A DNA stretch of 56,951 bases, filler included, from Sluysia triapertura (Eukaryota): NCBI GenBank assembly GCA_046118255.1. It is 4 parts of 4 records of this genome, joined end to end, with 100 filler letters (N's around TTAATTAATTAA, not from the genome) between each part and the next. Parts side by side here need not be neighbours in the genome. Positions count along the whole stretch, not along the records: positions 27,177 to 38,363 come from JBJNIA010187700.1; 3 more parts are not named here. The stretch is one strand, 5' to 3'. The position numbers and the translations under genes were made by a program. Shown here one piece after another: positions 2,512 to 56,179 of the stretch. Numbering within the stretch: the first letter of the stretch is position 1; each line of letters opens with the position of its first letter. The notes beneath the pieces were generated by a model. It ran no database searches, was not told the DNA's origin, and saw only the letters and a program-made list of their open reading frames with translations.

Positions 2512-2736
2512 AACATAGTATATAATAAAGTATGTCATTATTAAATCGAAAGAAAAGGAAACTGAGAAAACTATTTCTTATTTCTTATTTTTCTGGTTTC
2601 ATATTTTTTATACGTTATTTAATAAATTTAGCTTATGACATTTAACACTCTAACTATGATTGTTATCAATATGCAATTTAACAGTTATTTAGATATTTTA
2701 ACTACTCCTATTTTTCATGGAGAGACATTATATATA

Positions 2737-6169: not shown

Positions 6170-6835
6170 TGAATAATATTTCTAATTGTGGTAGCAAACT
6201 TACTAACCTTAATAAATTTTACAAAAATCCTACCTCAAGCATATTAAAATCTCATAAATCTTCAAAATATACACTACACATTTTTAAATCTATTTTAAAA
6301 CCAATCCATCATAACTAAAATCGTACCCTTTAACAACATACCACAACCTTGTAAAATTCATCACAATCGTTTTTATATCTTATTTCTTTCAAATCCACAA
6401 AAATAAACTTTCACTTTTCAAAACACCTCAAGTCTACAATCTCATATCAAAAGTACATTAAACAATTCACCAAAAATATTTACTCGATATCTCACAACAT
6501 CCAAACTACAATAACATCTCAAACCATTGAATCACATTAGAAATTCATCTAAAATATTTCAATTTTCATCAATAACAATTCGATTTAAACTATATTCTCA
6601 ACAGTCTATAATCACCTTCTGAACATACAAAAGTTAGACTATAACATACTTACTTTTACACGTCAAACTACGCCTTCATGACATATTAATAGCTCATCAC
6701 CTAATAACATCTTAAACTGGAAACATTATCCCATTTAAAACATTAAAGTGTATGATAACTTCCACATAAACATTCGTAGCGCTTCAAAATATTTAACACC
6801 TAAAAGTATTTTTACCTGACATAATAATAACACTT
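6170..6835 (+). repeat. G-depleted C/A-rich cassette leader (dispersed repeat)
   Basis: Aligns by eye with the reverse complement of 34780-35430, e.g. CTCACAACATCCAAACTACAATAACATCTCAAACCATT vs CTCATAACATCCAAACCACAATTACATTCAAAACCATT. Confidence 0.8.
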
Positions 6836-6838
6836 CGC

Positions 6839-6916
<78 letters not shown>
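6839..6916. repeat. (ATT)n microsatellite
   Basis: Direct reading of the sequence. Confidence 0.98.
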
Positions 6917-6967
6917 CATTTCAACATAATTTATTTCAATTTAAATTTTAATCATGTTGAGTTACTG

Positions 6968-7152
6968 CCATCATCAACAGTGACATTTGCTTTATAATTA
7001 CAATTTCATGTCAATGTTGATGATGGTTGTCATCACAGTATAATTTAACTCATCAAAAGCAATAAAATAAGCTAACCGATCGTATTGGCTGAAAATCCAA
7101 ATCAGTTATTATACTGATTTTCTTAAAATGCTTTTGGTTGGACAACAAATCA
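6968..7152 (+). promoter_or_regulatory. Cassette hairpin plus degenerate CCAAT-type inverted block
   Basis: 19-bp stem CCATCATCAACAGTGACAT/ATGTCAATGTTGATGATGG with one mismatch (6968-7026), then TATTGGC...TGGTTGGACAACAAATCA, homologous to 34482-34651 reversed. Lies about 120 nt upstream of ATG 7275. Confidence 0.55.
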
Positions 7153-7274
7153 AGATACAAAAAATTCATTCAGCACAATTTTAATTTTATTCTAAAAATT
7201 TTTAAAACTCACAATTTTAATTTTGATACAAAAATTTTATAGCTCATAATTCTTTGTACTGTTAATGGTAAAAA

Positions 7275-7890
7275 ATGTCATACAATTTTAACTACTATAA
7301 AGTTGATGATCTTAAAGATGTTGTTGATGATCTTAAAGATGTTGTTGATGATCTTGAATATCATAAAGATAAAGATTATGACAATTATATTAAGAGTCTT
7401 AAAGATAAAAATGATGACTGTTATTTCAAACATCATTAAAATGATAACGAGTATTTTATTAGTTTTAAAGATGATAAGGATGGTGTCAAGAATCATAAAG
7501 ATAAAGATTATGATAATTATGTTATGAATTTTAAAGAAAAAAATGATGACGGTAACAACTATTTCAACCAATATGAACATGATAATGATTATGCCGAGCA
7601 TTATAAAGATAACGAGAATAAAGGTGACTTAAGATTTGTTAAACAATATAAAGATGATGATCACAATTCCAAACAATATGCTGACGAGGATGATTATAAA
7701 GTTCAACGTAACCATATTAATCACTATGAAATGAATTTTCCTATGGACTAAAGTCATCGCCTTTTGTCCATACTCTACAGATGATCAAGGAATTTGTTTG
7801 ATGAACAGAGTAAAGTGTCAACGAATCGGAAATCAATGAACTTATCAAGAGTGTTAATGTGTGGATAGTTACATATACTAGAAAAGAGTT
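7275..7890 (+). pseudogene. Acidic D/N/K-repeat protein with Unkempt-type CCCH finger remnant (disrupted)
   Basis: ATG 7275 MSYNFNYYKVDDLKDVVDDLK..., in-frame stop near 7437, continues into ORF 7524-7751, then frameshifts into VIAFCPYSTDDQGICLMNRVKC (C-x9-C-x6-C). Homologous to 33342-34330. ORF 8026-8229 (…IIFNKTSTSPK) resembles IIFNNIRIKPPK near 42405. Confidence 0.65.
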
Positions 7891-14633: not shown

Positions 14634-15544
14634 TATATATTTTCTAATATCACAGCATAAATTTATAAGACTTATTAATAATTAAAAATTACTTTTAGAA
14701 AGTCTAGTAATGTTGTTTAATTTTTACATAATAGAAATAAATTTTACTTCTATTAATATTTGTTTATTTAAGGAAAATTCCACATAACTTAACTTTAAAA
14801 ACTCAAAGCTAGAACTTCTTTTCGATGTCCTAAAGATAGAGTTATCATCTCGGTCTACAGTTTTATATCAATTGTAATCAGTTATACAATAATTTAATTA
14901 ACATTATTTTTATCATTATATATCAATTTAAAATGAAACTAAAATTAAAAAAGAAATAACTCAAAAATGCTTTTAATTATAAAAAGCAAAAATGGAATGA
15001 AAAATCACGCAAAACATGTAATAAAATCTTTTATATTCTATTAAGTATAGAAAATACAAATTAACTATGTTAGAATTAATTAGAATTAACATTTTGTGTT
15101 GTACATATGTCTATAATTTATTTTTTATTTTATTATTATATTTTTGCAAAATTTTGAATATTATTATTATATTTTGAAAAACAAAATTATTTAACAAAAA
15201 ATTGTTTTTGGAATCTGGATAAATTTAAATATTTTTAAATTTAAACCTGAAAAATAATTTAAATCAAAAAATAAATATCAAAATTAATTTAAATATTTTT
15301 TAGAAACTAAATAAATATTTTACTATCATCTTAAAAAATATTTTTAAATTTAAAGATTAATTTTGTTTTAATGAATCAATTTTATTAATTCAACAAAGAC
15401 CAAAAATGGCTTCCAGCAAGGTAGTATAAATAATTTAACTTTTTGACCAAGATTTTAGAATTAAAAATTTAGAGAAGTAAAGTAGATTGGAAGTCAAGCA
15501 GATAATTTCATTTTTAGCAGTTGAGAATTAAATTAAAGAAGATT

Positions 15545-15644
15545 NNNNNNNNNNNNNNNNNNNNNNNNNNNNNNNNNNNNNNNNNNNNTTAATTAATTAA
15601 NNNNNNNNNNNNNNNNNNNNNNNNNNNNNNNNNNNNNNNNNNNN
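15545..15644. other. Artificial contig spacer (N44-TTAATTAATTAA-N44)
   Basis: 100 nt with a six-frame stop linker; identical spacers at 27077-27176 and 38364-38463. Confidence 0.98.
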
Positions 15645-15943
15645 TGATAACTATATGAATTTATTACCTTTCAGTCTAAAAATATTATTATAGTATGTAA
15701 AAAACCACTAATAAAATCAAAATTATATAAAAAATTAACGTATAATATCAATTGGAAAAAACTATAATAGCAGCATTAAAAAACATAAAGACCACCAAGT
15801 CGAGCTAGCAGATTACTTGTGCGATATTGTTTATTATCAAGTTATTCGTGGACATTGTTTGCAGAAACACTATTTATTATCGAATTATCTGGCATGGCTC
15901 GTTTTCCGAACAAAACCTGTTATCGAACGATTCTTATTCATTA

Positions 15944-16154
15944 CATGTAAGTTTTAGTCTGAATGGTAAAATATAAAATTAATAAATTCTAAATTTGGTA
16001 AACTATAAAATAGATTATAAAATTGAATATAAAATTGAATTTCAGTGTTGATTTTCGTTTATATTACTTATATCTGTATTATATAATTTTGCTGTTTAAT
16101 TCAGTTATAAATAATTTGAATTTTATTGTTAATTTCCATTCAGACTAACACATG
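15944..16154. repeat. MITE-like foldback (~210 bp)
   Basis: CATGT..TTAGTCTGAATGG at the left end is inverted to CCATTCAGACTAA..ACATG at the right end. Confidence 0.6.
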
Positions 16155-16749
16155 TTATTTCAATAAAGTTTTGTTTAGCTCCATTTGTGTTGGTAAATAA
16201 ACAGGGGTTGAATATAGAGTAACCAAATGAATTAAAATTGGTAAAGTTTTAATAATGTTAAATTAAAATTTTGATAAAGTAAACAAAGCTTTACGTTATA
16301 ACCAAAAAACAACAGAGATTTAAATAAATAAAATTTGCGAGATTTAAAGGAATGATTTTTTATTAATCATTTCCATCTCGAACAACTGAGACGAGTATAA
16401 GACTCACGATATTAAAGATAAGTATTTTAGATTGAGTTAACTTTAAACGAGTTAGGCAATTTAATATTAGTGCATAATTATCAGCACTCGCCAAGGACGC
16501 TTACAATAAAAAGAACTCAACGTAGAATGATCCAATAAACACACACTACGTTAGTATTAGTAGAAGTTCTTTGTATACATGTAACTTTATAATGAAATTA
16601 GTCATTTTGATTATGGACTGTGACAATAGTGTCGTATAAAGTGATGTGATGTTATTGTTCATAAAGGTTGATTTGATTAAATTTATCATATATAATGTGT
16701 ATTATATTATGTGAAGTATATTTGTAAATTATGTTTGTGAATTTTCAAA

Positions 16750-17700
16750 GACTGACATATCAAACAGGATTTGCACCAATTTTTTAAAGTCTTTGAGCGC
16801 AAAACTTCATATTTAGCTTTAGTTCCAGAATGGGTCGTATTATGTATGCATGTTAAGCTTTAATTCGTAATTGTTAGCCTAGTGATGGACCTGATAATTG
16901 ATTATCAAAGCAGATTCCTTCACGTAATGTAGGTGCAGCACTGAATTGTGAAATCCATTGACCATTGGATGGGTTTTGTCATAGGTATTGAACGGTGGAC
17001 GTCGGTAAAGTCTGCTATTGATTTCTACTCGGAATAAAGCATCTGCAACCACATTATCTTGCCCTGAAACGTATTTAATATTGAAATTGAATTAGGGCAC
17101 ATATCTGATGTGTCGTTATCATACATAGGATTTTTCATATTGAAAATCTGCAGCAACAGTTTATGGTCTGATCTTAATATGAATTGATCCATGATCAGTA
17201 AGTATTCAAAATGTTTTACTGATAAATAAATAGTCAACTTATGTGAAAAGAATTAGATTGGTATTGTATAGCGCCGATTGCCGTATTGGCGTCTCCAGTC
17301 AGAATAAAGGGTAATTATCGCAGCGGAAAGATTAAATTTTTAATGTTCATAATCGATCACTTTGTACGATAAGAAGATGTCAAAGATGTTTGATCCCATT
17401 TTATTTACTGAGATTTCTTATCTGAGGAAAGAGCTGTTAATGGAGCTATAATACTAGATAACCTAGATATAAATCTGCGGAAATAATTTACCATGCATAC
17501 GAAACTCCGCATTTGATTATTGTTGCTGTCGGGTTTCAGAAGTTTATTGAAGTTTGATTTATAGAATTGACATTTCGTTGGTTTAATGATTAAATTATTG
17601 TCGGCCAATTTTAAATGAATTTGATGTTGTTGAACATCTTCTGACGCGATTATGATGACATCGATATATGTCGCTTAGAATGATAGTCCTTGAAGGATTT
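16750..17700 (-). mobile_element. Ty3/Gypsy pol remnant (RT, RNase H, start of integrase)
   Basis: YIDVIIIAS (YxDD-derived), LIIKPTKCQF, MRSFVCMVNYFRRFI...APLT, PFILTGDA, KHFEYLL...FILRSDHK, YVSGQDNVVADAL; many stops and deletions. Confidence 0.9.
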
Positions 17701-29089: not shown

Positions 29090-30075
29090 AACTATATAAG
29101 TATAGGACAAACACAATTTATATTATAACAAATTAATAATAATATTTAATAAATACAACACGAATAAACTATTACTTATTTATAGTTTCCAATTTTAGTA
29201 CACTTTTAATTACTATATTGTATTCAGTTAAATAAATTTCGTTTCAAAAGTATAGGGCACATAACGCAAACGTTTTATTTAAGAGACTATACAACGTATT
29301 GTACAAAATTAGTATTTTATTGATGTTCCCGAGTTTTCCATTACCTTTACACACCCTTTTGCATCGAATTAATATATTTAACTTTTTATTTCAATCTTTG
29401 CCCAAGCGTCCAATATTGTATTTTTTAAATCATATATATTGTTATACTGTTTTCATTGACTGTACATCTTAAATGATAATTGAGACCATAAGTTTTCTGT
29501 TGTATTGAAGTCAGAGGATCTTGCTGACAACTCTAAACTTTTAATCCGTCTTCACTGAACTTATTAAGTTTAGTTTTAGATCGATGACATTGATATTTTC
29601 TGTAAGTTTGACATACGGAATTACTACTTATCACCATAGTAGTAGTAGTACATATAGTAGTTATCATAGTACTTATCACCATTAAGAGTAAAGCCAGCTT
29701 TTTATTATAAATTATGGTAGCCCATACCATAATTGATTCTCTTAGAACAAATTCTCTTAGAAAATATTTCTTTTGAATCCTTTAGATGTCGCCAATAAAC
29801 ATCATGACCTATTTCTTCTCATCTGAGAATCTTACTTTGTCCAGTCATTGTATCAAAGTTAATTATTTCTATTTTTTGAGCATCAGTAAGTGGAAGTTTA
29901 GCAAGCATTTTAATGAATTCGATCTCACCACTATTTTTTAATATTCTTCATACTGTTGTTTTACTGCAGTTTAGTTCTAAATCCGACATTATGCGAGTTG
30001 TAGACAATGTTGTATTTTTCGCCCTCTTTTTCTACCGATTAGAAAGCGTCTTAGGACAGCCAATTTGTTTAACTA
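29090..30075 (-). mobile_element. Second degenerate Tc3-like copy
   Basis: Reverse complement aligns with 2770-3660 (e.g. ACTCGCATAATGTCGGATTTAGA, GTTTCAAAAGTATAGG) and retains extra 5' coding sequence (GCPKTLS, GRP-like). Confidence 0.88.
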
Positions 30076-30094
30076 AATGAAATATAGAACAGTT

Positions 30095-30640
30095 TATCTG
30101 TCAAAGTTAAATCTTATTCACAATCTTATAACATACACTTCACATTTACATCCAATACCACCAATTTACATCAACAAATCCATCAAAGACACGTAACTTG
30201 ACATTCACAACAATCAAATAATAGCCACATTTGAAATTATCCACTTTACACCTTCGAATCAATCATAACACCTTAATTTCAGCATTTATCATTACATAAT
30301 CATCAACAACACAAAATACAATACCACTTAAAAACAACAATAAAACAAATAACCTTTCAAATATACCAAGAGTTGTATTATAAATTACCTTTTCACATTT
30401 ATTAAACCACACTCTTCTCAATAGGTCTTTTATTCACGATTTTCCAATACTCAAATATCGCTCTCAATCAAGAACTTAAATCATCATCTAAAAATCCATT
30501 CTTGCATTCTCCATTTCACTAGACGACATAAAACTACTATCATACCTTGAAACGTTAATCACATATATAAATTCATTTAAACTAATCTTTATTCAGATAT
30601 TTTAGCTTCAAACATATTTAAATTTATTGCAATATGTTCA
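30095..30640 (+). repeat. G-depleted C/A-rich cassette leader (left arm)
   Basis: Only 7 G in 30121-30360 by hand count; starts with TGTCAAAGTTAAATCTTA, similar to the boundary TGTCAACATATAACCTTA of the right arm (reverse complement near 35390-35407). Confidence 0.7.
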
Positions 30641-30935
30641 GAAATCATTAGGAGCTAAAGCAAGTCCATGTCAGTTTTTAAAGAATACAAGAAGTTTATG
30701 CAGTGTAATAACAACAATAACTACAAAATTGCTCAGCGTGTTATTACATTCAATATTATCAAATTTTATTTCATTTTTAATTTAAAATGTCTAGAAATCA
30801 AAGAAAGAGACAGAAAGATCATGTGGGTTTCAACAAGACTTTATGCATTTTTAAATATTTTGTACTAAAGTAATATTAATATTAATAATAATAACATTAT
30901 TGTGATTATTATTGATATAAAATATATATATCTAT

Positions 30936-31096
30936 CACTATCAGTAGCTAATTCCTGTCAATACATTTTAATTAACGTTACTACTGATAGTGGTTAGTTC
31001 ATTAATTTGCATCATAAATAGTTTACTATTATTGGCCATCCACCCAGAATAAAATTCATTATTTTTCAGACAAACAATTCTGGTTGGATGACCAAT
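30936..31096 (+). promoter_or_regulatory. Hairpin plus inverted-repeat CCAAT promoter-like block
   Basis: Perfect 12-bp stem CACTATCAGTAG/CTACTGATAGTG (30936-30992), then ATTGGCCATCCACCCAGAAT...ATTCTGGTTGGATGACCAAT (31031-31096), about 105 nt before ATG 31201. Confidence 0.65.
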
Positions 31097-31200
31097 CACC
31101 GGTCATCATCTGCAAAAATTAATTAAAAATAAAAATTACTATTTTATGAGACATAAACAAAAAACTGAACTTTAATATCTTCATTTTAATTCCTGTTGAT

Positions 31201-32751
31201 ATGTCCGATTTGCGACTTGCGAAACATTCAATATCTGTTAGTAAAATTGATTTCAAAAGTGGTAATGTGACAATTATAATTGGTATATCTAATTTATCCA
31301 GTCTACTGGAAATCAGCCAGTATTTTAGTGATACTTCATTTATCGAATCTTACAATGAAACATTCTGGTTTAATGGTTTAAATAGCGTATGCACCGTCGT
31401 AAAACCATTTACTGCTGCTAATATTTTATTAGAAGATCAATGTTTGGAAGACTATAAATCAATATCAATATCGAATTTCCATATGAGTAAAAGCCATAAT
31501 GATTTATCCATTAGAAATCATAATGGAATTCAGAAGTTAAGATTAAAGTTCAATGTAGAACAGATTAAGTTGATTATATTAACTATTTCAATTTCAAATG
31601 ATATATGGCGATTACACTTTCCTGAATGTATAGTTTATAATATGAAATCAAATTGTATACAAGAACAAATTGTTAATTTAGACTTTGACAATCAAATTGA
31701 ATGCGAAAACTTGGTTGAATTAATTTTAAGTACTATTAAAAATGTGTATTCTGGTAAAATTTATGTCATTATATCTTCAGTTATTACCAATAACAAATAT
31801 AAAGTATTATTTTTGTGCCTTATTATATTTGTAATGCTATAAAGTTTACAAATATATTAATCCTAATTTAATATCTATTTTGGGCGTATATTCGTTCATG
31901 TATTCTGATAATGAATCAGTTGATTCACTTGATAATTACGATTTTATTTTGATGTTGTCTTCTATTTCTAATCGAGACGCCATAGCAAAATTGAAAATAA
32001 ATTTTAGTATAATTATAGATAATGGATTTCATTCTGCGTTGATTCAAAATTCAGAATGTCACAATTATATGATTACAATAGAACCTATTTCTCTACGTGA
32101 ATATCGATCCAATACCACGAATTTACATTTGTACCCATTATGTTACATTAGGAAGTTAATGTATAATTTAGTTGAATTATCTAGTAAATGTATTTCAGTT
32201 AAAGATAATGAAGAAGGTTTTCTATTTGTTCAGTTAGCTTTACATCAAAGGGCTGAAGTTTTTAAACCGTCTTATAATCCTGAATCACTTTTTCATGCTC
32301 GAATTAATTTAGTTTGTCCAGAAATATTTCAGACTCGAAAACAAAAACTAAAGATTATCAGATTATTTCAAAGTAGTGATGATTTTTGGAGCTATGAACT
32401 TTCAGGTTTCGGTAATGAACTTTTAAAAATGAGTTGTTTTGATTGTGTAAAAGCTAATTCATTAACCAGAGCTTTAAATGCAGTATGTGTAACACCAGTA
32501 TATACGCCTACGGTCCTGCTTCAAAAACGTATGGAGTTATTCACAAGCTTGTGCAACATTTAAAAAGACTCTCTTCTATATATTCAGCAAACAACGGTCT
32601 TGAAATTTTATTAGAATTGTATTGTTGGTATGCTCAGAATTATCACAATAAACCAAGTGATATCAAGCGAGAATACAAGATTAATATTAAAACTTTGCGT
32701 TCATCTCTTAAATTACGAAAGACATATGAAAAGTATTTAATTGAGAAATAA
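31201..32751 (+). pseudogene. Unknown ~500-aa protein split into three frames (possible MATH-like N-part and Mab-21-like C-part)
   Basis: Consecutive ORFs 31201-31842, 31880-32563 and 32485-32751; paralog at 18629-19735. Domain suggestions are motif-level guesses. Confidence 0.65.
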
Positions 32752-33341
32752 ATTGGATTGAATGGCGGTAACCGAGAATCTAAAAACATGACCCTTTTGA
32801 AGTGAAGCAGAATGAGGTACGTGGGGATACAGCAACAAAATTAATAGTTTATATATTAACGTCAAATAAAAGTTTTGTATTCATTTATACGTTTTTTATT
32901 TATTTATATAATTTGTTTACAAATAAATTATGTAGTAGTTCTAAATGCTTTATCTTCGCTGAATACAATATTGATAATATTAGTAAAGATTATATGAAAT
33001 TTATATTTAAACTTGAAAGATTTTTTTATCAATTAAGACTAAATTCAATAATTTATTCACAAATATATTTAAATTCTCTCAAGACTAATTTTATAAATTC
33101 AAACTCAACTTTATAAAATTTAACCATAACCCCACCAAACTTGACCTAAGAAGATTTGCTGCTGCAGCCTCAGTTTTTATTCTTTTTTCTGCCTTTGTGA
33201 TCCATCCTTTATTTTGTGTTTGTCTGTACTGTAAATGTGTGTGATGAATTTTTCATTTATGTAATCGACTTATATCATTTTTATCTTGTTGTATTCCCTT
33301 CTTCCTCCCACAACTTTCTGTCTCTCAAATTCGCTTATTTA

Positions 33342-34330
33342 TCATTGAATTCTTGTCAGTCGGATTGGTCGAATAATTCCAATACTCTTGAGTAATTCTG
33401 CAATTCTGTATATATGATTACTATAATTTGCTTCATCTTTATTAAACTTTAATTCGTAAATAGAATGTGCGTAGTGGCAGCATATTCCGTGAATTAGACA
33501 TATCTCATTGTTATCGATACAGAATAGACAAAGAGCAGTCACATTAACATTTTTATAATTTTTGAATTCGTAATGCTTATCTTTATCATCGTTAAGTTTG
33601 AAATCATTAATTTTATAATCAAGTAAATAAAGATTATTATTATCGTCATTAATTCGTAAACATTAATTTTGTAATCATTAAGTTCGTAAATATTGTTATT
33701 ATCGTCGATAAACTCATAAAGATTAATTTTATAATCACTAAGTTCGTGAATATTAATATTATCGTTGATAAACTCGTAAACATTAATTTTATAATCATTA
33801 AGTTCATAATAATTATCTTTGTGATTGTGAATTTGGTAAGCATGGTCTTTATCATTGTTAATTTCATGATCATGATCTTTACCCTTGTTAGCTTGAATAC
33901 CATCATCTCCGTCATTATTAACTTTGCCATCATCAGGTTTGCCATTATTAGCTTGATAAACTTCATTCCTCCATTGCCAATTTTGTTATCATCATCTTTG
34001 TCATTGCTATCTTGATAATCATTATCTTTATTATTTTTAATTTCATCATCATCATCATCATCATCATCTTCATCATTATTAGTTTGATAATCTTCATCTT
34101 TAACATTGTTAACTTCGTTATCATAATCTTCATCATTGTTACATTGAATACCATCGTCATTATCATTGTTAATTTCTGTATCATCATCTTCATCATTGTT
34201 AGCTTGATAATCTTTATCTTTAACATGATTAACTTCTTTATCGTCATCTTCATCGTTGTTAACTTTGAGATAATCGTGTTTACAATAGTTAGATTTAACA
34301 GAAAATATGCTTTATTTTTCTTGGATTTAC
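33342..34330 (-). pseudogene. Acidic 10-aa-repeat protein with Unkempt-type CCCH zinc finger (frameshifted)
   Basis: The minus strand reads NNDEDDDKEVNHVKDKDYQANNDEDDDTEI... (30-nt tandem units), then VTALCLFCIDNNEICLIHGICCHYAHSIYEL = C-x9-C-x6-C-x3-H. Frameshifts near 33965 and 33650; no clear start codon. Confidence 0.7.
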
Positions 34331-34481
34331 CACCTCAATTAGTTATAAAAGTACAAAAATCTTTTTTAAAATAAAATACATAATTTTTAATTACTGCAAA
34401 ATTGTGTTATTAAACAAAGTTCGTTTAAGAAACGATCCAAATTTTTAATTACGTCACATTTTTGTGATCAAGCCACTACTG

Positions 34482-34651
34482 ATTGGTCATCCAACCAGAA
34501 GCAGTGATACTTGCTCTGGTTGGATGGCCAATAGGATCACATAATTATTATCATTAATAATTACCGAAGATAAAATCAACTATGATGACAACCATCATCA
34601 ACAGTGACATTGAATTGCAAATGTAAACCAAAATGTCATTGCCGATGGTGG
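34482..34651 (-). promoter_or_regulatory. Inverted-repeat CCAAT block plus hairpin (right arm)
   Basis: ATTGGTCATCCAACCAGA...TCTGGTTGGATGGCCAAT (34482-34532), nearly identical to 31031-31096; hairpin 34592-34651 is homologous to 6968-7026. Confidence 0.7.
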
Positions 34652-34779
34652 CAGCTACTCAGTTGATTATCCACATCATTAATAATGAATAATAATGAAA
34701 ATAATAATAATAATACAATGTTATTATTATTCTTTTGAATCTTAATAATATTTAACATATTTAAATCTACTAAAAAATT

Positions 34780-35430
34780 TAATGTCTTTGATGATGTGTG
34801 AAGGTTAGATGTTATTTAGATGTTAATATATCGTAGGTTAAAAGTATGTTGAAAGAGAGTGATTTCGAGAATGAAAAGAAGATAAGTTATAGTGTAGGTT
34901 TTAGTATGTTTGCAAGAATGATTATAGAATGTTGAAAATGTGATTTATTTTCTTGATGTTTATGTAGTGATGTCTTTATGTGCTGTAGAGAATTAAATGA
35001 TGCAGATTATGAATTTAGAATATTTGGATTGCTTTGAAGATGTTTGTTGGTTAATATCGAATGTGATTGTGTTTGAATTGTTAAGAAATGAAAAATAAAA
35101 TATTTTGAATGAATGTTTTAATGTAATTTAATGGTTTTGAATGTAATTGTGGTTTGGATGTTATGAGATTGTGGGTTTAATTGATTTTAACGGATGAAGA
35201 TGTTTAGTGGATGTAAAAGAGATAAATATTGGAATATTAAAATGTTTATAAATATGGTTTCACATACAATGTGTTGCTTAATTTATTATTGTTTTATGTT
35301 GATTTTAGAATGTAAAAGTCAGGTTTTGAAGGTGTGTGTTATGTTGAGTATTTTGGGAAACGTGGGATGTGAATTTTAATAAAATTCATTAAGGTTATAT
35401 GTTGACAACCACAATATAGATAAATGATTC
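34780..35430 (-). repeat. C-depleted G/T-rich tract = cassette leader on the minus strand
   Basis: 2 C in 35041-35220 by hand count; reverse-complement homolog of 6170-6835. Confidence 0.8.
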
Positions 35431-35727
35431 GATTTAGTCTTTAAATACTGATATTGATGATATCCTAAAATTATGACGATCGAACTAAAGACAATTTTTA
35501 TTTATTATATTAGACCACGTTATTCAATTGCCGCAAACTCAACTTGAAAAATTCAACAAAATAAATGTGAACTCAATTTAAAAACCCAAAATTAAAATGG
35601 TGTCTCATAACTATGAAATAATTGCTATTTATATCCATTAATATCGATTATTTTATGATCTAAAATCCATTAATGTTCATTAATATATGGTTGATCGATT
35701 AAAATGCTTTAAAATTATTTATAAATC

Positions 35728-36930
35728 TGTAAAGGTGTAAAACATTTTATTTTTGTTTTATATTTTATGTATATTTAAAAAATTTTCAAAACTTGCAAAG
35801 TATTATAAAAATTATTAAAAAATTACAAAAAATTATTATTATTTTTTTCTTTAAAAAATTATAAAAATTATAAATAAAATTACCAAAAAAGAATATTCGA
35901 GAAGAAGGAGTTGTTTAATGAATTAATTTTAATATACTTGAATTTATACGTACAAAAACTATATAAAGACAAACAAAGAATAACAGACGACCGTTTTGAC
36001 AATTCGAACTACAAGTGCAATCGCCATTTTATTATCTGTTAATTTGACTCATCGTTTCGGTTTCTTTTTGGCGATCAAAGGCATTAGCGATTCAATTCAA
36101 TTATAAAGCAGAATTATATCTCGAGGATTCGATTAGAGAGATCTCAGCTCCAAATTCTCTTCAATCCGATCAATTAAGTAAACAAAAGACATTCCTTCGA
36201 CTTCGAATATTCGCTCATCATTTATTAAATTATTGATTAAATAGTGAGTTTACTTTAAATAAAGTGAAAACTCCCTAGAGTTAAAATCTCCATGTAAAAT
36301 ACCTAATTTTCAGTTGGCCATTAAGATCAATTACAAAAGCACCTTAAAATATAAAATCATCGTCTTTTAGTTGGCCCTTAAGGTCAATTATAAAATCATT
36401 ATTAACGGGTAGAGTCTTCGGGCTAGACCTCTTATTATAAATAATTTAATATTGTTATTATAATTATTATTATTTGATTAACATTGTTTATATTATTATT
36501 TTTCATAAGCTTATAATTGTTTTAATATTAATTTCGTCATACATACCTTTTGTTATATAATAAACTTTTAAGTTTTAGTTCATTAGAATAGTGATTCCTA
36601 GTAAATAATTGTAATTTAAGGATAATAAAGAAATACTTTTTACACTAATATTTTCAGCATTATTCTTATATAAACTTAAAAACAGACGTCCGCATTGGTC
36701 GTTGTTAGCGTTATATTTTATAAGTTATTTGGTTATCTGTCGACGTAACTGACGATTTTGTTAAATTAAAGAGTATTTTTTATACTGCTAATCTTTAGGA
36801 TTGTTCTCACGTAATTTTACAGGTACGCCATTAGTAAGTCGTATACTGTAAACGGATTCTGAATAATAATAATTTATTTTGCTGATAGTTAAGTCTTTTG
36901 TTAAGAAAAACACCAGCAATATTATATTTA
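35728..36930 (+). mobile_element. Solo LTR-like repeat, copy A
   Basis: Starts TGTAAAGG; TATATAAAGACAAACAAAGAA, AGTTGGCCCTTAAGGTCAATT, GGGTAGAGTC..GGCTAGACC and TTTACAGGTACGCCATTAGTAAGTCGTATACTGTAAA are all shared with 50560-51904. Confidence 0.65.
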
Positions 36931-36984
36931 ACTGAAGAATATATTATTATTATTAAATCATTCAGTGAAAGTTTAATTAATGAG

Positions 36985-37060
36985 TAGGGCTGTTCCTGGT
37001 GCACAGGTAAAATTTTTAAAGGTGACCGGTGCAGGGAAATCCTTCAAAGTCACAGCCCTA
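36985..37060. mobile_element. Miniature hAT-type MITE (76 bp)
   Basis: TAGGGCTG...CAGCCCTA termini; no clean 8-bp TSD. Confidence 0.5.
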
Positions 37061-37481
37061 ATATTAAGTTATTGGATTTTACAAATGAATTGTCATTCAA
37101 GTGGTTTTAATTTATGACGCTCATTGGATTAAAATTAGTCAATTTTATTTAAAATTTACCTTAAAAATACAATTGTTTTGAAGCTTAATGCATTTAATAT
37201 TATTAAATTTCTATTATACGCAGACAAAACATAACATCATTAACACTCTTTGTTGTGATAAACTATAATACAAATTTTGTCAATGAAGTAAACTTATATG
37301 ATACTTAATTCAAAATATGGACGTTTTGAGCGTACAATTCTAATATAATTTATCAATGTTCATAGCAGTAAAATAAATGGATAACGTTTTAAAATATACA
37401 AAAAAATTTAGAATTATTTGAGTTAATAAGTTATTCGAATATTATTATCACTATTATTATTCACACAGTATTTTGACTTAC

Positions 37482-38336
37482 ATTTATTGTTTTTAGGTTA
37501 GGACAAGTAATCGAATATCTTGCAATGGTCATTTGTTTTAATTCATTCCTTGAAACCATCATCCCATCTCCATTATTTAATAAATACTTTGGTATTTCAT
37601 TTTTGAGAACGTCTTCTAACATCCTTTCACCTTGATCATTAAAAATATCTATTAACTTTCCTTTACCACTACTATTTAGTAAGTTATAAAGTTCATTGCC
37701 TCGAATATTTTCATTTCTTCTTAACCATACAAAATCATCAGGTTCTTCATTTGAAATTTTATATGTTTCCAGTGAATCTGTGAATGAAATCATTGATGAC
37801 AATCTTTTTGTTTTATCAGCCACATAATTACTAAAATTATTAATGGTTACACTACCGAATCTGCGATACGTACTGTTTGAATCTTCATTTTCTAAACTGT
37901 TGGGATTAAGGTGCCTATTAGCCGATTTTGGTGATAAAGCCTCCATTAAATTACTACGATTAGAATTAAGAGAAACACGAGGTGAGACATTAAACACTGT
38001 TACAGAAGGAGAGAATATTCGGGAATTGATGATAATTGTTGAATTGTTCTGATTAAGTTCCGGTGATACTAATTTTTGAGAATTGTTACTATTATTACTA
38101 CAATTTATGTTTTCAATAAAACAACAACAAACGACTTTTAAAGAATAAAATCTATTCGTATTATTTCTAGAATTAGAATTTTGATTAATATTGGTGTTAT
38201 AGTAATTGTTTTGTTCAACAATATTAATAGATGGTGTTACAAATCCAACCGAATCAGAATACGAAGGTGGTGGACAAATTGGATCTTCCGATAAAGTAAT
38301 TGTTTCTAATTTAAAATCCTTTTCATTTTTCAACAT
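37482..38336 (-). CDS. First coding exon (285 aa) of an invertebrate TRPV channel, Inactive/OSM-9 type
   Basis: ELYNLLNSSGKGKLIDIFNDQGERMLEDVLKNEIPKYLLNNGDGMMVSRNE resembles the pre-ankyrin N-terminal segment of Inactive/OSM-9/Nanchung (LYKL....GG.L....N.GG.....I......YNDGKG..I.R.E); GTAAGT donor at 37481. Confidence 0.7.
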
Positions 38337-38363
38337 AATTACTAATAATATTCTAACTCAAAT

Positions 38364-38463: not shown

Positions 38464-39128
38464 ACGACCACTACATTAATGCGTTCAACCAGATTATAAG
38501 TAGATGTTTATCACAATTATCGTCCAGTGATTGGTACTACCGAATACTTAACTTAGTTAGAGTTAGTCACATTTTGATTCAATTAATTTGTTTATCTAAT
38601 TATTTTGTAGATAATCAAAGAATCTTTCGGATCTTGAAATGGTGGAAAGTCGAATATAACAGTTATAATGGTGTAATCACTTTTCTTTTTCAAGTTAATA
38701 TTCACATTTTTGTATTAAAAAGATCTTAATTTTAGTTTATTTTATTTGTGTTAAAACTAATTAATGCCATAAGAACTAACGATGCAGTAAAAAAGTAACC
38801 TTAAATATAGGTTCAAAACATATTGTTATTTTAGAAATTCTAGAAATTATTATGAAAATTACAAGAAAATTAAAAGCTTTATAACAATGAGATTAAATAA
38901 AGCTATAAAGATATTCTCTTATAGTATACTTAACTTTAGACTGAATAGTTTTCGGACAAATTCTGCATACACATTCGTAATCTTTAAGATACCGTTTAGT
39001 ATAATCCTCTTTAAAAAAATTAATAATCCAACTTATATCTTAAAGATAACTACCAAATTTACAAATTCAATTTCAAAACTTCTTCTAAAACATTATTCAT
39101 CTCAAACAAAACATATAACTTCCATAGT

Positions 39129-39185
39129 AATCACGACTGATATTGTTCTTTCCAATTTACTTTGAGTCGTGATTGGATAACCAAT
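39129..39185 (+). promoter_or_regulatory. Inverted repeat ending in GATTGGATAACCAAT (cassette promoter variant)
   Basis: 10-bp perfect stem AATCACGACT/AGTCGTGATT whose right arm runs into TTGGATAACCAAT (cf. TTGGATGACCAAT); preceded by a G-poor tract (~39000-39125) and followed by ATG near 39299. Confidence 0.55.
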
Positions 39186-39298
39186 AGCAGGACACAGAAA
39201 AATTAAAAACTAAAAATATAGATAGTAGTGAAAAAATTAAATTTTACAAGTGAATTCTGTGGAACTTTTTCAAAAAAAGGATTTTAAATTTTTAAATA

Positions 39299-40743
39299 AT
39301 GATAGATGCTAATTTTTCACAGACCTTCTCTATGTTTAATAAGTTACACCAAAGAAATTATTTTCATATCGTCATAATGATAACATTATTAACGTTATCA
39401 ATAGTGGATATTCTAATTCAACTGTTAGCGATTTGAGTATGATAATTAATTCCGAACCGACGTTACCAAATTCAACAATAAATGCTACTTTAGTAGATAT
39501 TGGAAAAAGTCAATTTATATTGCTTACACTTTCAATTATGTTAAATAATGAGCAACAACCTATCGATTTTAGTTTTCAGATTGACTACATTCAAGTAGGA
39601 CCATCTGTAAAGACAGATTTTTCGATGCAGGAACCGACAACAGTTCAGAATATATTTCGTCTTATAAGTATTATGTTACAAAATTCAAATTGTTTTCATG
39701 ATAAAGATGTGTACTTCGGCCATCCGTATTTATTAGTTACATCATATGAATTGATCCAATCTCTTAACTTAGCAAATTATTATGCTTATAATACCCATTA
39801 CTCATCTATCGTTTCTCTAACAACGTTGCAACGTGAAAAAGTCAAACAAGAAATAAGTCGTATTAACAAAGAACGATCATCATATAATGATCTTGTCTTC
39901 CTACAATCAATCGTATATAGTTATATGAATTTATCATTAGAGAGTATGTTAAGTTTAGAAATGGTTTATGTCACACTTTCAAGTTACGTATGTCAAAGTT
40001 GATAGTTATTTCCTTCTCAATGATCAACGATGTATCAATATAAGTAATGGCAATTTACTCAAGACGCAAAATATTCAACTTATAATTAGTAATTTAAAAG
40101 TTAATGTGGTAATGACCAGAAATGTTGAATCAAAACGATACTTTCCCTATAATGCTTTTATTTAAGATGTTTCAAGCATGAATTTAACAAGAGCCAAGTA
40201 TTTAATGTGTATAATGACTATGACAAAAGATACTGGAATCAATATGAAATCAATCAGTATCCTTATTTTAGTAAATTGCTACTGAGAAGCTTAATAAAGA
40301 ATGAACTGATCGACAGAGGATTTCTGGATTTTGTTAACAAAATCTGTGGCGAAATCGAATCAACTAATGTAAGCTTTAATTTCATATATGTGTTAATTTT
40401 TATTTTAGTTCATATGTTTCGTATCCGGATCAGTGAAGCCCAACAGTGTTCTCTGCAGCAAAAAGGGTCTGCAAAAGAAATAAAGGGAGAAAACAAAATC
40501 TTTAATACTAATATGAATAACGTTTATTCAAAATTCACGACATTAAATGTTTTATTAATAAAATTATGTATTATTAATTGTGAAACCTTTTCGTTCTTTG
40601 TAAATCAGAAATTAAATTTTTTACGTTTTATGGAAATTAATGACGATAAATCTTTTAATTTTGAAATTCAATTAGTCAAATCAATACCTAAAGACATGAA
40701 AGGCTATAAACTGTTGAAAAATCATAAAGCGAAAGAAACTTAG
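39299..40743 (+). pseudogene. Disrupted gene containing a beta-1,3-galactosyltransferase (GT31)-like segment
   Basis: INKERSSYNDLVFLQSIVYSYMNLSLES matches E...Y.DI......D.Y.NLT.K; YVKVDSYFL matches (Y/F)VMK.DDD.F; NQYPYFS matches YPPYCS. Multiple frameshifts; candidate 40-nt intron 40369-40408. Confidence 0.65.
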
Positions 40744-41613
40744 TATTCAAATATCAAAAGAAAAAAATTGACGAACTCCAAAATAATTTTATATATAATT
40801 CTTTTAAAGCGTAGTAGTAGAACGATCTTTAAGACGTTAAACTTTTTCTATGAGTTGATTCAAAACGAACGTATTGACACGTGTATTATTTTCTTATTTG
40901 AACAACAATATTCTAAACTTGTATTAAGGTATAAAACCGAAAACAACTATAAACATCCCAAAGACTTATACACCCCAAATTGGTGTAAGGAGTATTACTC
41001 CCCAAATTCATGTCGGGAGTATACCCCCATAATATGATTTTCAACTTGATTGAAAAATATTACTTCCTGTTTTTAGTAACATTAAATTTATAGTATTTTG
41101 GAATGTGACATTATCGTTACTTTAATGAATAATCATTGAGATTTTAAGCTGCACCAGATTTTTTTGTGACAAATATTAATAATTCTTGCACATTCTTAGT
41201 GTCTTTACATTTATTTCTGTGTGAAAATTCAGAATTTAGAACCTCTATGTTCAACTCTAACTTAATGGATAATAATACATATTCAAAAGTAACGCTAATC
41301 TCAATGTCGTATTTTAAATGTATCAATTTTACCCAACCACATTTCAATTTTTCGCCAGTGTGGTGACCAACCTTATCACTCAAAATTCCAATTCGTTACA
41401 TCACAGTAAAACCTGTCATTTAAAACTGTCAACAAATCAGGGCAATCGTGACCTCACAATAATTTCATTCTCAATTTAAATTGTACTTACACAATTAAAA
41501 TTTTAGTCTCAATTACTTTGGTCAAAAAATATTATTTTAACAAAACATTTTCCTCAATCAATCTAAAAAAGAGATTTAACAATCAATACTTAATTGATTA
41601 AAGGTTAACAATA

Positions 41614-42090
41614 ATGAATTATTATGATGAGAATATTTTCGAAAATACATTTTTTCAATCACCTATGTTAAACAAGAAAGAGAAGAACATCATTATGTAC
41701 CTCATGAAAATTCTTTTCGAAATATAATTTTGATTATTTAAGCCACGTACTTGTACGTATAAGTGCGGAAAAAACTTTAGACGATACTGTATCAAGTGAA
41801 TATAGTTATCAGCATTGTCCCAAAATTGCAGGAATTACAGAACTTCCCTATTATTTACATCATTACAAAACCGGACAATGTCTCCATGGTACTTCAGATA
41901 CTGGTGAGTGCCTTGTGTATGGTAAAGGCTGTATATATTCACATGGTTATACTGATTCTCAACATGCTTTCTATGATGACAAGATATTCAACGATCATTC
42001 GGAACGTATTACCAACTTAATATCTACATTAAAATTAAGATCGACTACAATAATAGTCAGGCATTTCAAAATGATCCATGTACTCGTATA
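41614..42090 (+). CDS. Unkempt-type CCCH zinc-finger protein fragment (spliceable; may be a pseudogene)
   Basis: ATG 41614, candidate 46-nt GT-AG intron 41697-41742, then open frame GITELPYYLHHYKTGQCLHGTSDTGECLVYGKGCIYSHG, closely like Unkempt GDTERRYHLRYYKTGICIHETDSKGNCTKNGLHCAFAHG. Missed by the ORF track. Confidence 0.75.
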
Positions 42091-45000
42091 ATTGAGAATG
42101 CTGTATTCAACATAAATGATCAAAGTTTTTTTTATTAAGGTAAATCATTATACTATACAACTTTTATTATATTATTATGATCATATTTTTATTTTTTAAG
42201 AATTCTATTAAGTTTACGGACCATAGCATTTTTGAAAATAAATGAAAATTTATTATTACGCAGATCTTGTGTCCATAAACGAATTTTTATAAAAATTTTG
42301 ATAACTTCATTTAATAAATGTCTTAAATGCTATTTTAATATTTTCTTAGATGTATACATAATTAAAAGAATTAACAAAGTGAAGAACATGTTTCAAAAAT
42401 ATTAAATTATTTTTAATAACATCAGAATAAAACCACCAAAGCCAGATCACCTAACGTTGATTATAACATATCAACTTTTTAATACACATATTAACAATAT
42501 CAATAAGTTCATTTTGGACCATATATCTTAAACCAAATTAGCTACACAAATGCTATATTGCACTTAGACACACATCATAAAATGACATATAACGAAGTCC
42601 ACGACGTTTCGCATGTAAGCGAAGGAAATGATTAGTTAGAAGATATTTCTTAAAGTTAAGTATTGCTTTTATTACTCATTGAATTCTTTACAAAGCAACT
42701 TGTTGTTCAATGTTACTGGATTATCGTTTATATAGACTAGATAAACTATGAGCATTCATACTCAATTTTGTCAACTTATTTTGTATTCTGGTTATTATTA
42801 AAATAGTAACATTTATTTGTTCAAAAATTCAAGTTAACAGATTTAGCAGAATTGCTAAGCATATTTAATTTTCTTAATAGTTGTTTGCCTGACGAATCTA
42901 TCAATGATATATCATCTGCATGGGCCAAATGTTATTAGTGATTTAATTTTGTCTTGGTGTAAAATTATCATTATTATTCATAATGTTGTAATAAAAATTT
43001 TAATGACTTGATTTATCGTTATAAATAGTCTTCCTCACAAACGAATTGATTGCGATTGTATATAATCTAATTTATTTTAAAAGCGTCTTTAAAACGAGTC
43101 AAGAATTTCACATTTCAAATTTATTGAATTTCTGTTGTCAAAAAGTGTCAATATAGTGACTCTCTTTATCGAATATATAAGTTGAGAGCAGTAGAAATTT
43201 TTGATAAACATAATAAATAAGCACAGGGTACGGTGCTAGATGCTGCAATACCCCATACCTTGTTTGCACTAAATTTGAAAGTGCCACATAATGGTAAGTT
43301 ACATTTTTTCTGTTATATCTCGTTTAAAATTGAAATATCACAAATTTATTTTATACTATTTTATTTTTTATAAGTTTGTTCATTCTGAAGTCATACATAT
43401 AAATAGAAAAATCAGTGGGGTAATTGAAAATGTTAATAGCACCAATATTTTAAATCTTATGAAAGATAATCGAAATACGTATTTGAGTCACTTAAATTTG
43501 AAGAAACTAATAAAAACTAATAATTTATACACTTTCGAGTGTCAATACACACATTTATTGATTTTTTATAATAAGCACCATTCTAAAAATGAAATGACTG
43601 TTTCTAATAGCGATATCAAATTACGACATTCGATGAACTTTTTTGCATTCACAAAATTTGAAATAATATCGTACTTCAGAATCTGATTAACTTATATATT
43701 AAAAGCTCTCACCTCTGTTTGCAGAAACTATCATCTAACCATACGATGACACTGACACTCGTTATGAACGTTCTCGCACTTTACCTTATAACAACCATAT
43801 TTTATCAACTCCTAATATACTTGCTACAGTATCCTAATATTCTAATATAGTAACAAAAGCAATATTTTTGTTTCGTCTTTTAATTTAAATTAATAACAAT
43901 AACTCAATAATAAAATTATTTAATTTGAAATCTCAATATAAGTGCAATAAACACAAGATCAAATACAAATTATTACAATGAGTTTTTCTTTAACAATAAT
44001 ACAAATCATTTTAATACTTAGTAAGTCCTTACTACTACCTAATTTATTTCAATCTAACCTTAAATTTAAAACCTCTAATAAAATAATAGGATTCTTTTTT
44101 ACTCTTATGTTTTCGTCTAATCCGTAACCTTATCCATTTGTTGATTAAGTGTAGTGCTTATTTTAAAATTACTGATGTGTAGCTTTATTTTATTTTAGAA
44201 TTATTAAGTTATTTTGAAGATTACATTTTGTTAATTTTGCAAGTTTTTCCTGAGAGTTCGCCTATAGCCTGCGATTTAAGTTGACAAATCAACAACGTAT
44301 TTATAGGTTTTGAATCTTTCCACGAGTTACTGGTTTTTTCAGTCGACTATTAATGTGTTTTGCAATGACTCTAGTTATTACTTTATTGTAACTTTTTTTT
44401 ATTCTACGAATAATAAATTATTTCTCACTTTCTTTAACAATTTTTCAAGCGTTATCTTCCGCTTTAAAAATTATGCTTATTAACTTCAGTCACTGTTTTT
44501 TCTCTTGTTTCAATACTTCCGATTTATGTTACTTTAATTACTCTCTTTGTCAAATTCAGAAATTACTAAACACCAGGAAAATGTATTCACAATAGTTGTA
44601 ATCTAACACAAGAAAAACACAAAAATCTATGCATACATAATAATAGCAATAAACCAATTTATTACAAGAGAATATTAAACTCTTATTGCCTTTACGTTAT
44701 TTTTAATTAGATTTTATCACTAGCTTAAGCTAGCGTGAAATAACTACAAATTTTAAATATTGTTTTGTTTAATATTTGTTTAATATTTAATATTTAATAA
44801 ATGGATTTACAAAATTAATAAACAATAAGTTGATGATCAAAGTTTTCTCGATCAGACGAATTCCAAAAGAATATTTTAATGGATGAACACAAAATCTACG
44901 AATAATTTTTTTATTTCTTCAAAACTGATAAACACTAAGTTTGTGATTAAAGTTTCTCGATTAAACGAATATGCATGAAATTTTCGATTCTTCGAGGCAG

Positions 45001-48820: not shown

Positions 48821-49089
48821 TTAATATAAAACAATATATAAAACAAACAGATTTTTATGCTGTAATCCAAGAACATCGCAATATTCATCTAAAGTTATAG
48901 TACCACTATTATCTTTATCAAATATTTTCATCCACTTCTAATAACAATTTTAAGTCAACTTACAAATTGTACTTCGATAAAATTAGGTTTATAATTATTT
49001 TCTTCCATATATTTTCTTAATTCATCACAAGTTATTTCTCCAGAAGAATCTTTATCAATTTTGAAAAACGCTTCAACAAAATAATCCAT
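48821..49089 (-). CDS. Two-EF-hand calcium-binding protein (resembles the N-domain of flatworm tegument allergen-like proteins)
   Basis: Exon 49089-48973 MDYFVEAFFKIDKDSSGEITCDELRKYMEENNYKPNFIE, 35-nt GT-AG intron 48972-48938, exon KWMKIFDKDNSGTITLDEYCDVLGL...; two canonical EF loops. The 3' end may splice further. Missed by the ORF track. Confidence 0.9.
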
Positions 49090-49471
49090 ATTTTTGTTTT
49101 AAGTATATCTAACTATGATACCAATAAAAATAAACTTACTTAGTTTAGTAAATAATTTTTACACATCTGATATTTCTTTAATGTAATGAATTTTTCAAAT
49201 ATAATGTTTAAATAAAACGCAGCAAATAAGTTTAACGTTTTTATTAATCAGCACATATATATATGTGTGATTTGCTGCACTTTATTTAAACAATATATAA
49301 GAAAAATTCATGATATAAATAGATTAAATATTGATTATTAAAATGTTAAACCGAATTTTTTCGTCTTATTAAAAAATATATTTGACATGTTCATAATTCT
49401 TAAAAGTTATTTACTAAACTATGTTTGTTTTTACTGCATTATAATTAAATATACTTGCAACAAAAGTATGG
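49086..49471. repeat. Long imperfect palindrome covering the EF-hand gene promoter and ATG
   Basis: CCATATTTTTGTTTTAAGTATAT...TAGTTTAGTAAATAA is inverted to TTATTTACTAAACTA...ATATACTTGCAACAAAAGTATGG; inner arms TGTTTAAATAAAACGCAGCAAAT / ATTTGCTGCACTTTATTTAAACA. Confidence 0.85.
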
Positions 49472-50559: not shown

Positions 50560-51904
50560 GTATTCAACCCATATATTACGTTTTCAATTCAAAGTAAAAA
50601 ATTTTATTTTTAGATTTTTATTTTTTTATTATTTTGTGTAAAAAATAAAATTATAAAAATATTATAAAATTTATTAAAATTGTATTATTTTAAATTACTA
50701 TTTCAATTATTATAAAATTAAAAAATACCTAAAAAGAAACTTCTCTAAAGAAGTTTGTTTAATTAAATTAAATTTTAAAAAATGTCTTTATGTCTATATA
50801 AAGACAAACAAAGAAATTAGTACGCCATATGTAAGTAAAAACTCCATAATTAAAAAACAAAGCCGAAACTCAATTCGCCAGATAAAGAAATCGTAAATTA
50901 GAGTTCGTCAATTTTGGTAAAGAAAATCAAATTATCTGCGACATCATTCGGCCCGCATTATTAATTCGTGCACGTCAGTTTCAAACTTATTCTTCCATTT
51001 ATTTTGTGCGATCCCGCGTATTCGATTAGAGGGTTTGCATTTCCTAAATAGCAGCAACTCGATCGTTCAATCTAAATTCAAGCAACATCACCGGAAATGA
51101 AATTATATTATTAATTAAATTCGTAAGTTTGATTTGCATAAGTTTATAAACTCCCATAGAGCAATAAAATCCACTTAAAATACTGTTTTCCAAGGTTGGT
51201 CATTAAGGCCAATCATAAAATCAAACTAAAATATAAAATCTCAAATCTTTAGTTGGCCCTTAAGGTCAATTACAAAATCAGTATCACAGGGTAGAGTCTT
51301 TTGGCTAGACCCTTATTATAGTTGAATTATTATTGCTATTATAAATTTATCATTTTTAATATATTTGTATTATTAACATTCATTTTTCGTTGGATTTTTA
51401 TAAATTTATATTAATTTTATTTTAGTCGTATTTTTGGTGTAATAAAAATATTTTTTTGAATCCTTTTATTTGAATTAAGTTTGAATTAATTACTCTTTTT
51501 GAATTACTCTATTTTTCGAATAATTTACAATTAAATATAAATTTTTAATCTAGGATTTATTGATTGTAATATTATCTCATTAAGTTTTAAAAGTTCTAAA
51601 GGTTTAGATTTCAAGATATAAGAGACGACACGTTTTTATACCATCATTATTTACTTGATTTTTATATTAATTAGTTTTAAGTTATTTATTGTTAATTGAC
51701 ATAAAATAATTGACGATTTTGCCAATTATTGTTAAGTTAAGGTAAAGAATATTTTTGTACGATTAATTTTGATAACTGTTTTCACGTAATTTTACAGGTA
51801 CGCCATTAGTAAGTCGTATACTGTAAATGGACCAGAATAATTGATTATTTTGCTGTAGGTTAGGTTGTTAGATTAAGAAAGACACCTAGAATTATTAATA
51901 TACA
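50560..51904 (+). mobile_element. Solo LTR-like repeat, copy B
   Basis: Collinear with 35728-36930; TATA box near 50795 followed by TTAGT; ends TATACA. Left boundary approximate. Confidence 0.65.
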
Positions 51905-55783: not shown

Positions 55784-56179
55784 TTTTAAAAAATCCTCAT
55801 AATTATACCATGATAAAACAAAAATGTAACATATACTTATAATTTTACAATTATCAAAACTATATACAAATTGCGGTCAAAAAGTCAGAAAAAATATATA
55901 AAATAATAGTTATGATTAATCAATATTTAATATACAGTTGTAAACAAAAATTGAAGCTTTATCATTGAGAATAAATTTTATCAATGATTTAAATATTTCA
56001 TAAAATTTTGGGATTTAAATTACCAAAGATTTTATAAAATATTAGTATTGGTTATTCATAGTACGTACCGTGTAAAAATAAATAGCAAAATAAAATATAG
56101 AGAAACAAATCAGCGCACTAACTGGCAGTGGTCACGAATGTCGGCGGTACATTGTTTAATTATGTCTAGTAAATAAATT

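Follow-up and report, generated by a model that had tools for sequence, protein, structure and literature searches.

What kind of DNA aims two unrelated genes at each other from two mirror-image arms? The question is raised by a stretch of about 5.3 kb in the genome of Sluysia triapertura (assembly GCA_046118255.1), at positions 30095..35430 of the window, by which we mean the whole 56,951 nucleotides (nt) that were analysed, composed of four parts of the genome joined end to end. A sequence-only reading had likened this unit to ambisense densoviruses and to Pack/foldback elements with long terminal inverted repeats (TIRs), and saw in it either one element or two independent cassettes. We find that it is a multi-copy, unclassified two-gene element in which two homologous arms aim the genes at each other; both genes are broken in this copy. 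It is best placed among the long-TIR, gene-carrying DNA transposons. The more specific reading, a long-TIR DNA transposon of the MuDR/Pack-MULE-like kind whose arms contain promoters, MULE-like in layout only, stands at about even odds (roughly 0.5). The observations that carry this placement are the multi-copy state, the homology of the arms, their conserved hairpins, the layout of the genes and the homology of a zinc finger.

How can the unit be recognized as a repeat? Depth was summed over the contigs of one sequencing run, matched at 80% likeness (the run contains 0.47 of the words and may come from the source sample). Values of 12.6 at 30021-30023 and 19.7 at 35458 bracket the unit, five flank contigs with zero differences have depths of 10-19, and between these points the depth lies in the hundreds to thousands. 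Per-site values in the interior, mostly 490-1,340 between 30666 and 35277, are 1,246 (30666), 1,773-4,925 (31262-31452), 785-1,338 (32170-32597) and 804 (33176), followed in the right half by 928 (33435), 708 (33883), 1,197 (34151) and 491 (35261). Depth bins in the leaders reach 13,800-16,900, with 11,116 at 35202; ends that are deeper than the interior fit many relatives with common ends and differing insides. Read roughly, the depth corresponds to 35-95 close copies of the whole unit and to as many as about a thousand relatives that share the leader boxes, a figure to which low-complexity cross-matching may contribute. Many copies between low-copy flanks, together with a second member in the same window, form the pattern of a dispersed mobile element. 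Its edges are approximate: the depth step and the homology of the ends place the left end within 30024-30099 and the right end within 35413-35457, and at the right the homology to the arm of the second member, at 6.2 kb, extends to 35430.

The mirror layout proposed earlier is real: skewed leaders, both hairpins and terminal motifs are found on both sides. From the outside inwards, each arm presents a terminal motif, about 700 nt that are nearly free of G on the inward strand, an AAT/ATT stretch, a first hairpin and a second hairpin with CCAAT boxes. The left leader (30095..30800, plus strand) is G-poor and rich in C and A, with 40% A, 21.5% C, 6% G and 32% T; the right leader (34740..35413, minus strand) is G-poor on the minus strand by composition, and pattern search gives it the terminus TGTGGTTGTCAA..AACCTTA. 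Counted per 200 nt, there are 7-8 G and 45-50 C at 30101-30500 as against 42-48 G and 4-7 C at 34801-35400, as expected from the C-rich and G-rich leaders described before. These two arms and a third at 6.2 kb show the strongest 600-nt skews of the window. ACAT is over-represented in the three leaders (53 observed, 23 expected), a search for a tandem period in the leaders found none, and the microsatellite-like AAT/ATT stretch (30863..30925 in the left arm, plus strand) lies at the same place in all three arms.

Are the arms related by descent or only by composition? The sequence-only reading had staked its proposal on alignable sequence beyond the CCAAT palindrome, and such sequence exists: the leader block at 30119..30357 (plus strand) aligns with right-arm positions 35173-34936 over 243 nt at 68% identity (E 2e-15), and the local score of 102 compares with a maximum of 50 in 100 locally shuffled controls. 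Similarity is patchy along the arms, and over their full length the leaders lie near the level set by composition, with a global identity of 66.7% as against 61.7% when shuffled and a score of 326.5 as against a shuffled maximum of 335. The motif TGTCAA..AA(C/T)CTTA, reported at both outer edges, is indeed present at 30099 on the plus strand (30099..30115, TGTCAA..AATCTTA) and at 35407 on the minus strand; taken alone it is a weak sign, as seven places in the window carry it with one mismatch. A separate 22-nt direct match with one mismatch between the left leader (30150-30171) and the left gene (32107-32128) is probably due to chance (E 0.006).

At the inner end of each arm lie the two hairpins. 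On the left, hairpin 1 (30935..30993, plus strand; z -3.7) has a 12-bp stem and a 35-nt loop, and hairpin 2 (31031..31096, plus strand; z -4.8) is an inverted pair of CCAAT-containing boxes 105 nt before the ATG that makes a candidate promoter. Their counterparts on the minus strand are the CCAAT boxes of right hairpin 2 (34482..34532; z -5.9) and right hairpin 1 (34592..34651; z -2.4). The near-identical CCAAT palindrome noticed earlier is thus real, with 21 nt identical between the two second hairpins. Over three arms, 97% of the cells in hairpin 1 pair and 4 of its 12 pairs are altered on both sides; taking both hairpins together, double changes occur in 7 of 30 pairs, a value matched by 5 of 500 shuffles and by no slid control (at most one pair), in a set of only three arm sequences from which the structure itself was drawn. 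The inverted box TTGG-N4-CCAA occurs four times in the window, each time inside one of the cassettes described here, and wherever a start can be placed it lies ~105-115 nt upstream of the reading frame.

The third arm belongs to a truncated second member of the family at 6171..7820 (plus strand), which joins a right-type arm to repeats rich in D and K and a decayed CCCH finger (60% identity over 1,250 columns, E 2e-60). This arm is nearer to the right arm of the unit than the left arm is, and it runs collinearly into the same gene for ~1.6 kb; no partner arm for it was found in the window. By sequence comparison, a more distant cassette lies at 38790..41037 (plus strand), with a weaker C-rich leader, one TTGG-N4-CCAA box (39173) and broken open reading frames (ORFs) of ~510 aa. 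It holds a single compact ATTGGATAACCAAT box and is followed head to tail by an ORF with an Unkempt-type finger (41708-42088). The latter is part of a third finger gene, behind a short C-rich stretch at 41340..42091 (plus strand), which probably belongs to the family as judged by its protein. A larger element spanning 38.8 to 50.3 kb was considered and dropped, given the EF-hand host gene at 48.8-49.1 kb.

What do the two genes encode? The right gene (33120..34311, minus strand), recognized through Pfam, PDB and paralog alignment, encodes 10-residue repeats rich in D, N and K, an Unkempt-type CCCH finger and a helix. The clean ORF reported at 34330 on the minus strand does not exist: the gene lacks an intact ATG and contains two frame changes and several stops. 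Its finger, C-x9-C-x6-C-x3-H at 33530, had gone unmentioned before. It matches Pfam zf-CCCH_UNK (PF25427) weakly (E 0.0045) and 5ELH with E 0.67, and the protein aligns with its paralog from 41.7 kb at z 7.2, helix included. That paralog (41708-42088) matches PF25427 with E 4e-7 and the third Unkempt finger in 5ELH with E 1e-7; a word-indexed search with this ORF gave no result. The finger is thus seen three times in the window, at 33530, at 41.7 kb and, decayed, at 7765.

The left gene (31201..32751, plus strand, from ORF reading) encodes ~480 aa in three frame pieces, 31201-31842, 31835-32563 and ~32548-32751. Two genes do face each other as proposed; the 213-aa ORF at 31201 is merely the first of the three pieces, and the gene continues to ~32751. 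A stop-free run of 242 codons exceeds the maximum of 171 in 300 shuffles. The first frame break may be an intron, because family depth drops to 34 at 31821-31832. None of the three pieces has a relative in Pfam, PHROGs or PDB, the databases with which the third piece was compared. The middle piece has no match among 1.84 billion representatives, the first none in a word-indexed search among longer proteins, and the pieces tried in viral-contig and metagenome searches found no relative; two pieces found none in the Atlas, where recognition is below a reliable level. Two single-sequence AlphaFold models are unusable (pLDDT 33 and 30), and Foldseek on one of them returned nothing under E 0.25, which has no evidential value. 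By eye the product seems to share motifs with the MULE, hAT and BED consensus, a likeness that no library supports.

Could this orphan be the mobilizing enzyme itself? The unit would then represent an undescribed self-mobilizing class. Its left gene would encode a recombinase or an initiator of replication that binds or nicks at the hairpins, and the Unkempt-finger protein would travel along as a regulator or as a factor against silencing. We consider this rather unlikely. The left gene does share the even depth of the unit and keeps long frames, and the pairing of hairpin 1 has been kept despite changes. At 38.8-42.1 kb, another orphan gene of about this size follows the same CCAAT box and adjoins a finger gene; yet these two orphans lack mutual similarity, as the homology of the left gene to the gene at 39.3-41.0 kb, plausible by eye, failed shuffling tests (z below 0.8). 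A host-derived passenger should have relatives, and the middle piece has none in the search above; this lack of matches is nonetheless weak evidence, because the proteins of the host are themselves very divergent. To the left product, models of such low pLDDT and with no alignment allow neither a catalytic motif nor a fold to be assigned. In its broadest form, the unit would be the first representative seen of a kind of animal mobile DNA not described before, a transposon or an integrated segmented virus, with shared, skewed, hairpin-bearing ends of 1.1 kb, swapped genes, an unrecognized mobilizing protein and an Unkempt-derived RNA-binding regulator. To this, too, we assign a low probability.

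Between the two genes lies a junction (32752..33120) with AATAAA on both strands (plus strand 32865 and 32922, minus strand 32895 and 33052), which could hold overlapping 3′ ends. A rival to the single element is that one-armed cassettes of leader, promoter and a single gene move singly, two of them having met tail to tail at this place through chance or a preference for the target. The 6.2 kb member without a partner arm and the cassettes at 38.8 kb and 41.3 kb in their head-to-tail order would suit this, as would the lack of a contig bridging 32870-32920 among the 8 of 19,147 contig pieces listed. The depth speaks for a single unit: the junction bin stands at 841 between neighbours of 921 and 611, with no unique spacer, and both genes end within ~370 nt. 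For 5′-truncated retroposons, depth is expected to be lowest at the 5′ side; here it peaks at the 5′ leaders, the opposite pattern. A contig joint from 30391 to 34905, on opposite strands and of depth 32, lies near the homologous register of the arms, which would fit an arm of left type on the outside and of right type on the inside. Independent cassettes are therefore quite unlikely, and we prefer a single element with ancient long TIRs, given the even depth over genes and junction and the arm-switching joint.

Could such an element be viral? An endogenous ambisense densovirus would match in size and convergent layout, and PMC6880638 describes densovirus integrations as common in flatworm genomes. 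The analogy failed on every defining feature tested. Walker A/SF3, HUH and PLA2 motifs are absent from the gene frames, which have no Parvo_NS1 match; no stable terminal hairpin forms (-3.0 and -7.8 kcal/mol over 150 nt), the hairpins of the unit lying 750-950 nt inside; and the unit is present as tens of diverged genomic copies. In the tapeworm insertions described in PMC6880638, the NS1 and VP genes are arranged in tandem and a helicase domain is evident. A densovirus is thus highly improbable. The absence of SF3, HUH and DDE signatures, first noted by eye, was confirmed by motif and domain searches of the gene frames, which also contain no polB or GIY-YIG motif; the unit has no match to the reverse transcriptase, integrase or tyrosine recombinase of LTR, DIRS or LINE retroelements, and Rfam gives no match at gathering score in the window.

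Another viral candidate is a bidna-like DNA virus with several segments, the unit and the other cassettes being different segments that were integrated and amplified. PMC8363768 describes for Drosophila Vesanto virus as many as twelve segments, 3.3-5.8 kb long, whose inverted terminal repeats are similar and whose genes differ; several lack replication genes. Shared ends with varied genes are found there likewise. Through the G-poor inward leaders, each strand is C-rich at the 5′ end and G-rich at the 3′ end, which together with the size and the common ends with varied content would suit a linear replicon. Against this reading, matches to polB, NS1, capsid and glycoprotein are all absent, and a gapped-palindrome DNA pattern and three protein queries found no relative in 2.9 million viral contigs. 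Pattern and protein queries of metagenome contigs found none either. In parts the likeness of the arms is only 60-68%, a route of amplification would be needed for the tens of diverged genomic copies with their indels, and the left gene likely has an intron. We regard a viral origin of this kind as unlikely. A 19-nt match in a viral contig of 53% GC, with no second half-site and no protein similarity, was put down to chance.

We return to the long-TIR transposon, for which the Pack/foldback likeness named by the sequence-only reading stands as the best layout match. The stretch would be a single decayed copy of a DNA element that is dispersed in the genome and bounded by long, degenerate inverted arms of ~1.1 kb. 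The inward arm ends, with their two hairpins and CCAAT boxes, may act as promoters. As in MuDR, the two internal genes would be transcribed from them convergently, up to poly(A) signals that overlap. The right gene could derive from a captured fragment of a host unkempt gene, its third CCCH finger, that gained acidic repeats, and its product probably binds RNA. Movement would most likely be by cut-and-paste, with the arms bound by a transposase provided in trans by a putative autonomous relative outside the window. Non-autonomous MULEs lack a transposase by definition.

Several points weigh against this reading. No frame piece of either gene matches a DDE or any other transposase in Pfam or PDB, nor is a MULE DDE, SWIM or FLYWCH domain found there. 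An 8-nt direct repeat at 30081 and 35413, of a length that suits the 8-11 bp target-site duplication of MULEs, may be such a duplication or a chance match: 14.6% of 5,000 random window pairs also share an 8-mer, and the similarity to the 6.2 kb arm continues beyond it, to 35430. The termini themselves match poorly, sharing only a short motif, and the aligned leader block is ~215 nt off register relative to them. Arms of ~1.1 kb are longer than the MULE range in PMC6446971, 14-500 bp in the text and up to 640 in the table. As regards copy number, summed contig depth from a single run is not a copy count, and it dips locally to 34 (31821-31832), 378 (32051), 69 (33214) and 53 (33971), the dip at 33214 falling within a 72-nt stretch skipped by a contig of depth 704; the junction that none of the listed contigs bridges belongs here as well. 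The double changes in the hairpins can come from template-switch repair without selection. Finally, the MULE model holds no account of the near-absence of G on the inward strand of every leader, which leaves 700 nt unable to fold beside three hairpins. Speculatively, this skew could stem from strand-specific mutation while the arms are transcribed outward or their ends are processed, or from selection that keeps a single strand unstructured.

What would such an element mean? Long-TIR, gene-carrying elements are well described in plants and much less so in animals. In the literature searched, which included few subscription papers and to which repeat libraries such as Repbase and Dfam are external, we found no description of a published element with an Unkempt finger. 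A family of tens of close copies with perhaps ~1,000 end-sharing relatives would make up a sizeable unclassified part of the genome. Should the orphan prove to be the mobilizing enzyme, it would represent a new transposase or a new initiator of replication; if the family is merely non-autonomous and of the Pack type, the addition is modest. Tapeworms are reported in PMC6880638 to be without a canonical piRNA pathway, and if the host is a parasitic flatworm, an element-borne RNA-binding protein would bear on the mutual control of element and host.

The window around the unit has 25% GC and few genes; it contains microsatellites of ATT and remains of Tc1/mariner and gypsy elements. The left flank of the unit is a Tc1-like relic whose frame ends at ~30063, at the unit's left edge; it and a second relic (29146-30063, minus strand, and 2772-3659, plus strand) share 73% identity at a summed depth of 15,000-57,000. 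A Tc1/mariner-type element of ~1.35 kb at 13240-14592 has inverted repeats of ~150-200 nt (84% alike) and a decayed transposase, and a very abundant unclassified repeat at 36128-37243, with a second copy at 51100-51900, contains a 57-nt duplication and reaches a summed depth of 85,000. Among the host sequences are a low-copy exon (37464-38357, minus strand), the C-terminal part of which is similar to the N-terminal region of the TRPV channel Inactive (E 0.04, the only PDB match; a word-indexed search gave no result), and a BTB-domain gene in several pieces (54777-55876, minus strand; Pfam BTB E 1e-5). The EF-hand pair (48850-49090, minus strand), separated by a 35-nt intron and with a 126-nt hairpin directly upstream (49186-49311), presumably resembles flatworm tegument-allergen-like proteins. 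Together, these sequences make the host probably an animal and likely a flatworm.

How does the unit compare with known systems? It shares with the flatworm endogenous densoviruses (EmuDNV) and ambisense densoviruses its size, the likely host group and multi-copy, decayed integrations; the genes of EmuDNV are in tandem, whereas those of the unit converge and come without SF3 helicase or terminal hairpin. Vesanto virus and the bidnaviruses likewise have units of 3-6 kb with common terminal inverted repeats and differing gene content, but there the segments are free and viral, and their set includes genes for polB, NS1, capsid or glycoprotein, while the copies here are decayed and genomic. With the N-terminal CCCH cluster of Unkempt (UNK, PDB 5ELH), the right gene has in common the C-x9-C-x6-C-x3-H finger and the preceding YxLxxYK linker; unlike Unkempt, the element protein has one finger only, acidic repeats before it and a paralog-shared helix after it, and is carried in a repeat, and no RING domain is seen in the element finger proteins. 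The closest likeness in layout is to MuDR and the Pack-MULEs. PMC3310237 describes MuDR as two convergent genes transcribed from promoters in its TIRs, and Pack-MULEs as carriers of gene fragments. The unit resembles them in its length of ~5 kb, in the promoter-like boxes of its long inverted arms, in the convergence of its two genes, in the putative fragment of a host gene that it carries and in ends that are commoner than interiors; it differs in arms of ~1.1 kb that are strongly strand-skewed, only partly alignable and out of register, and in its cargo, an Unkempt-type finger.

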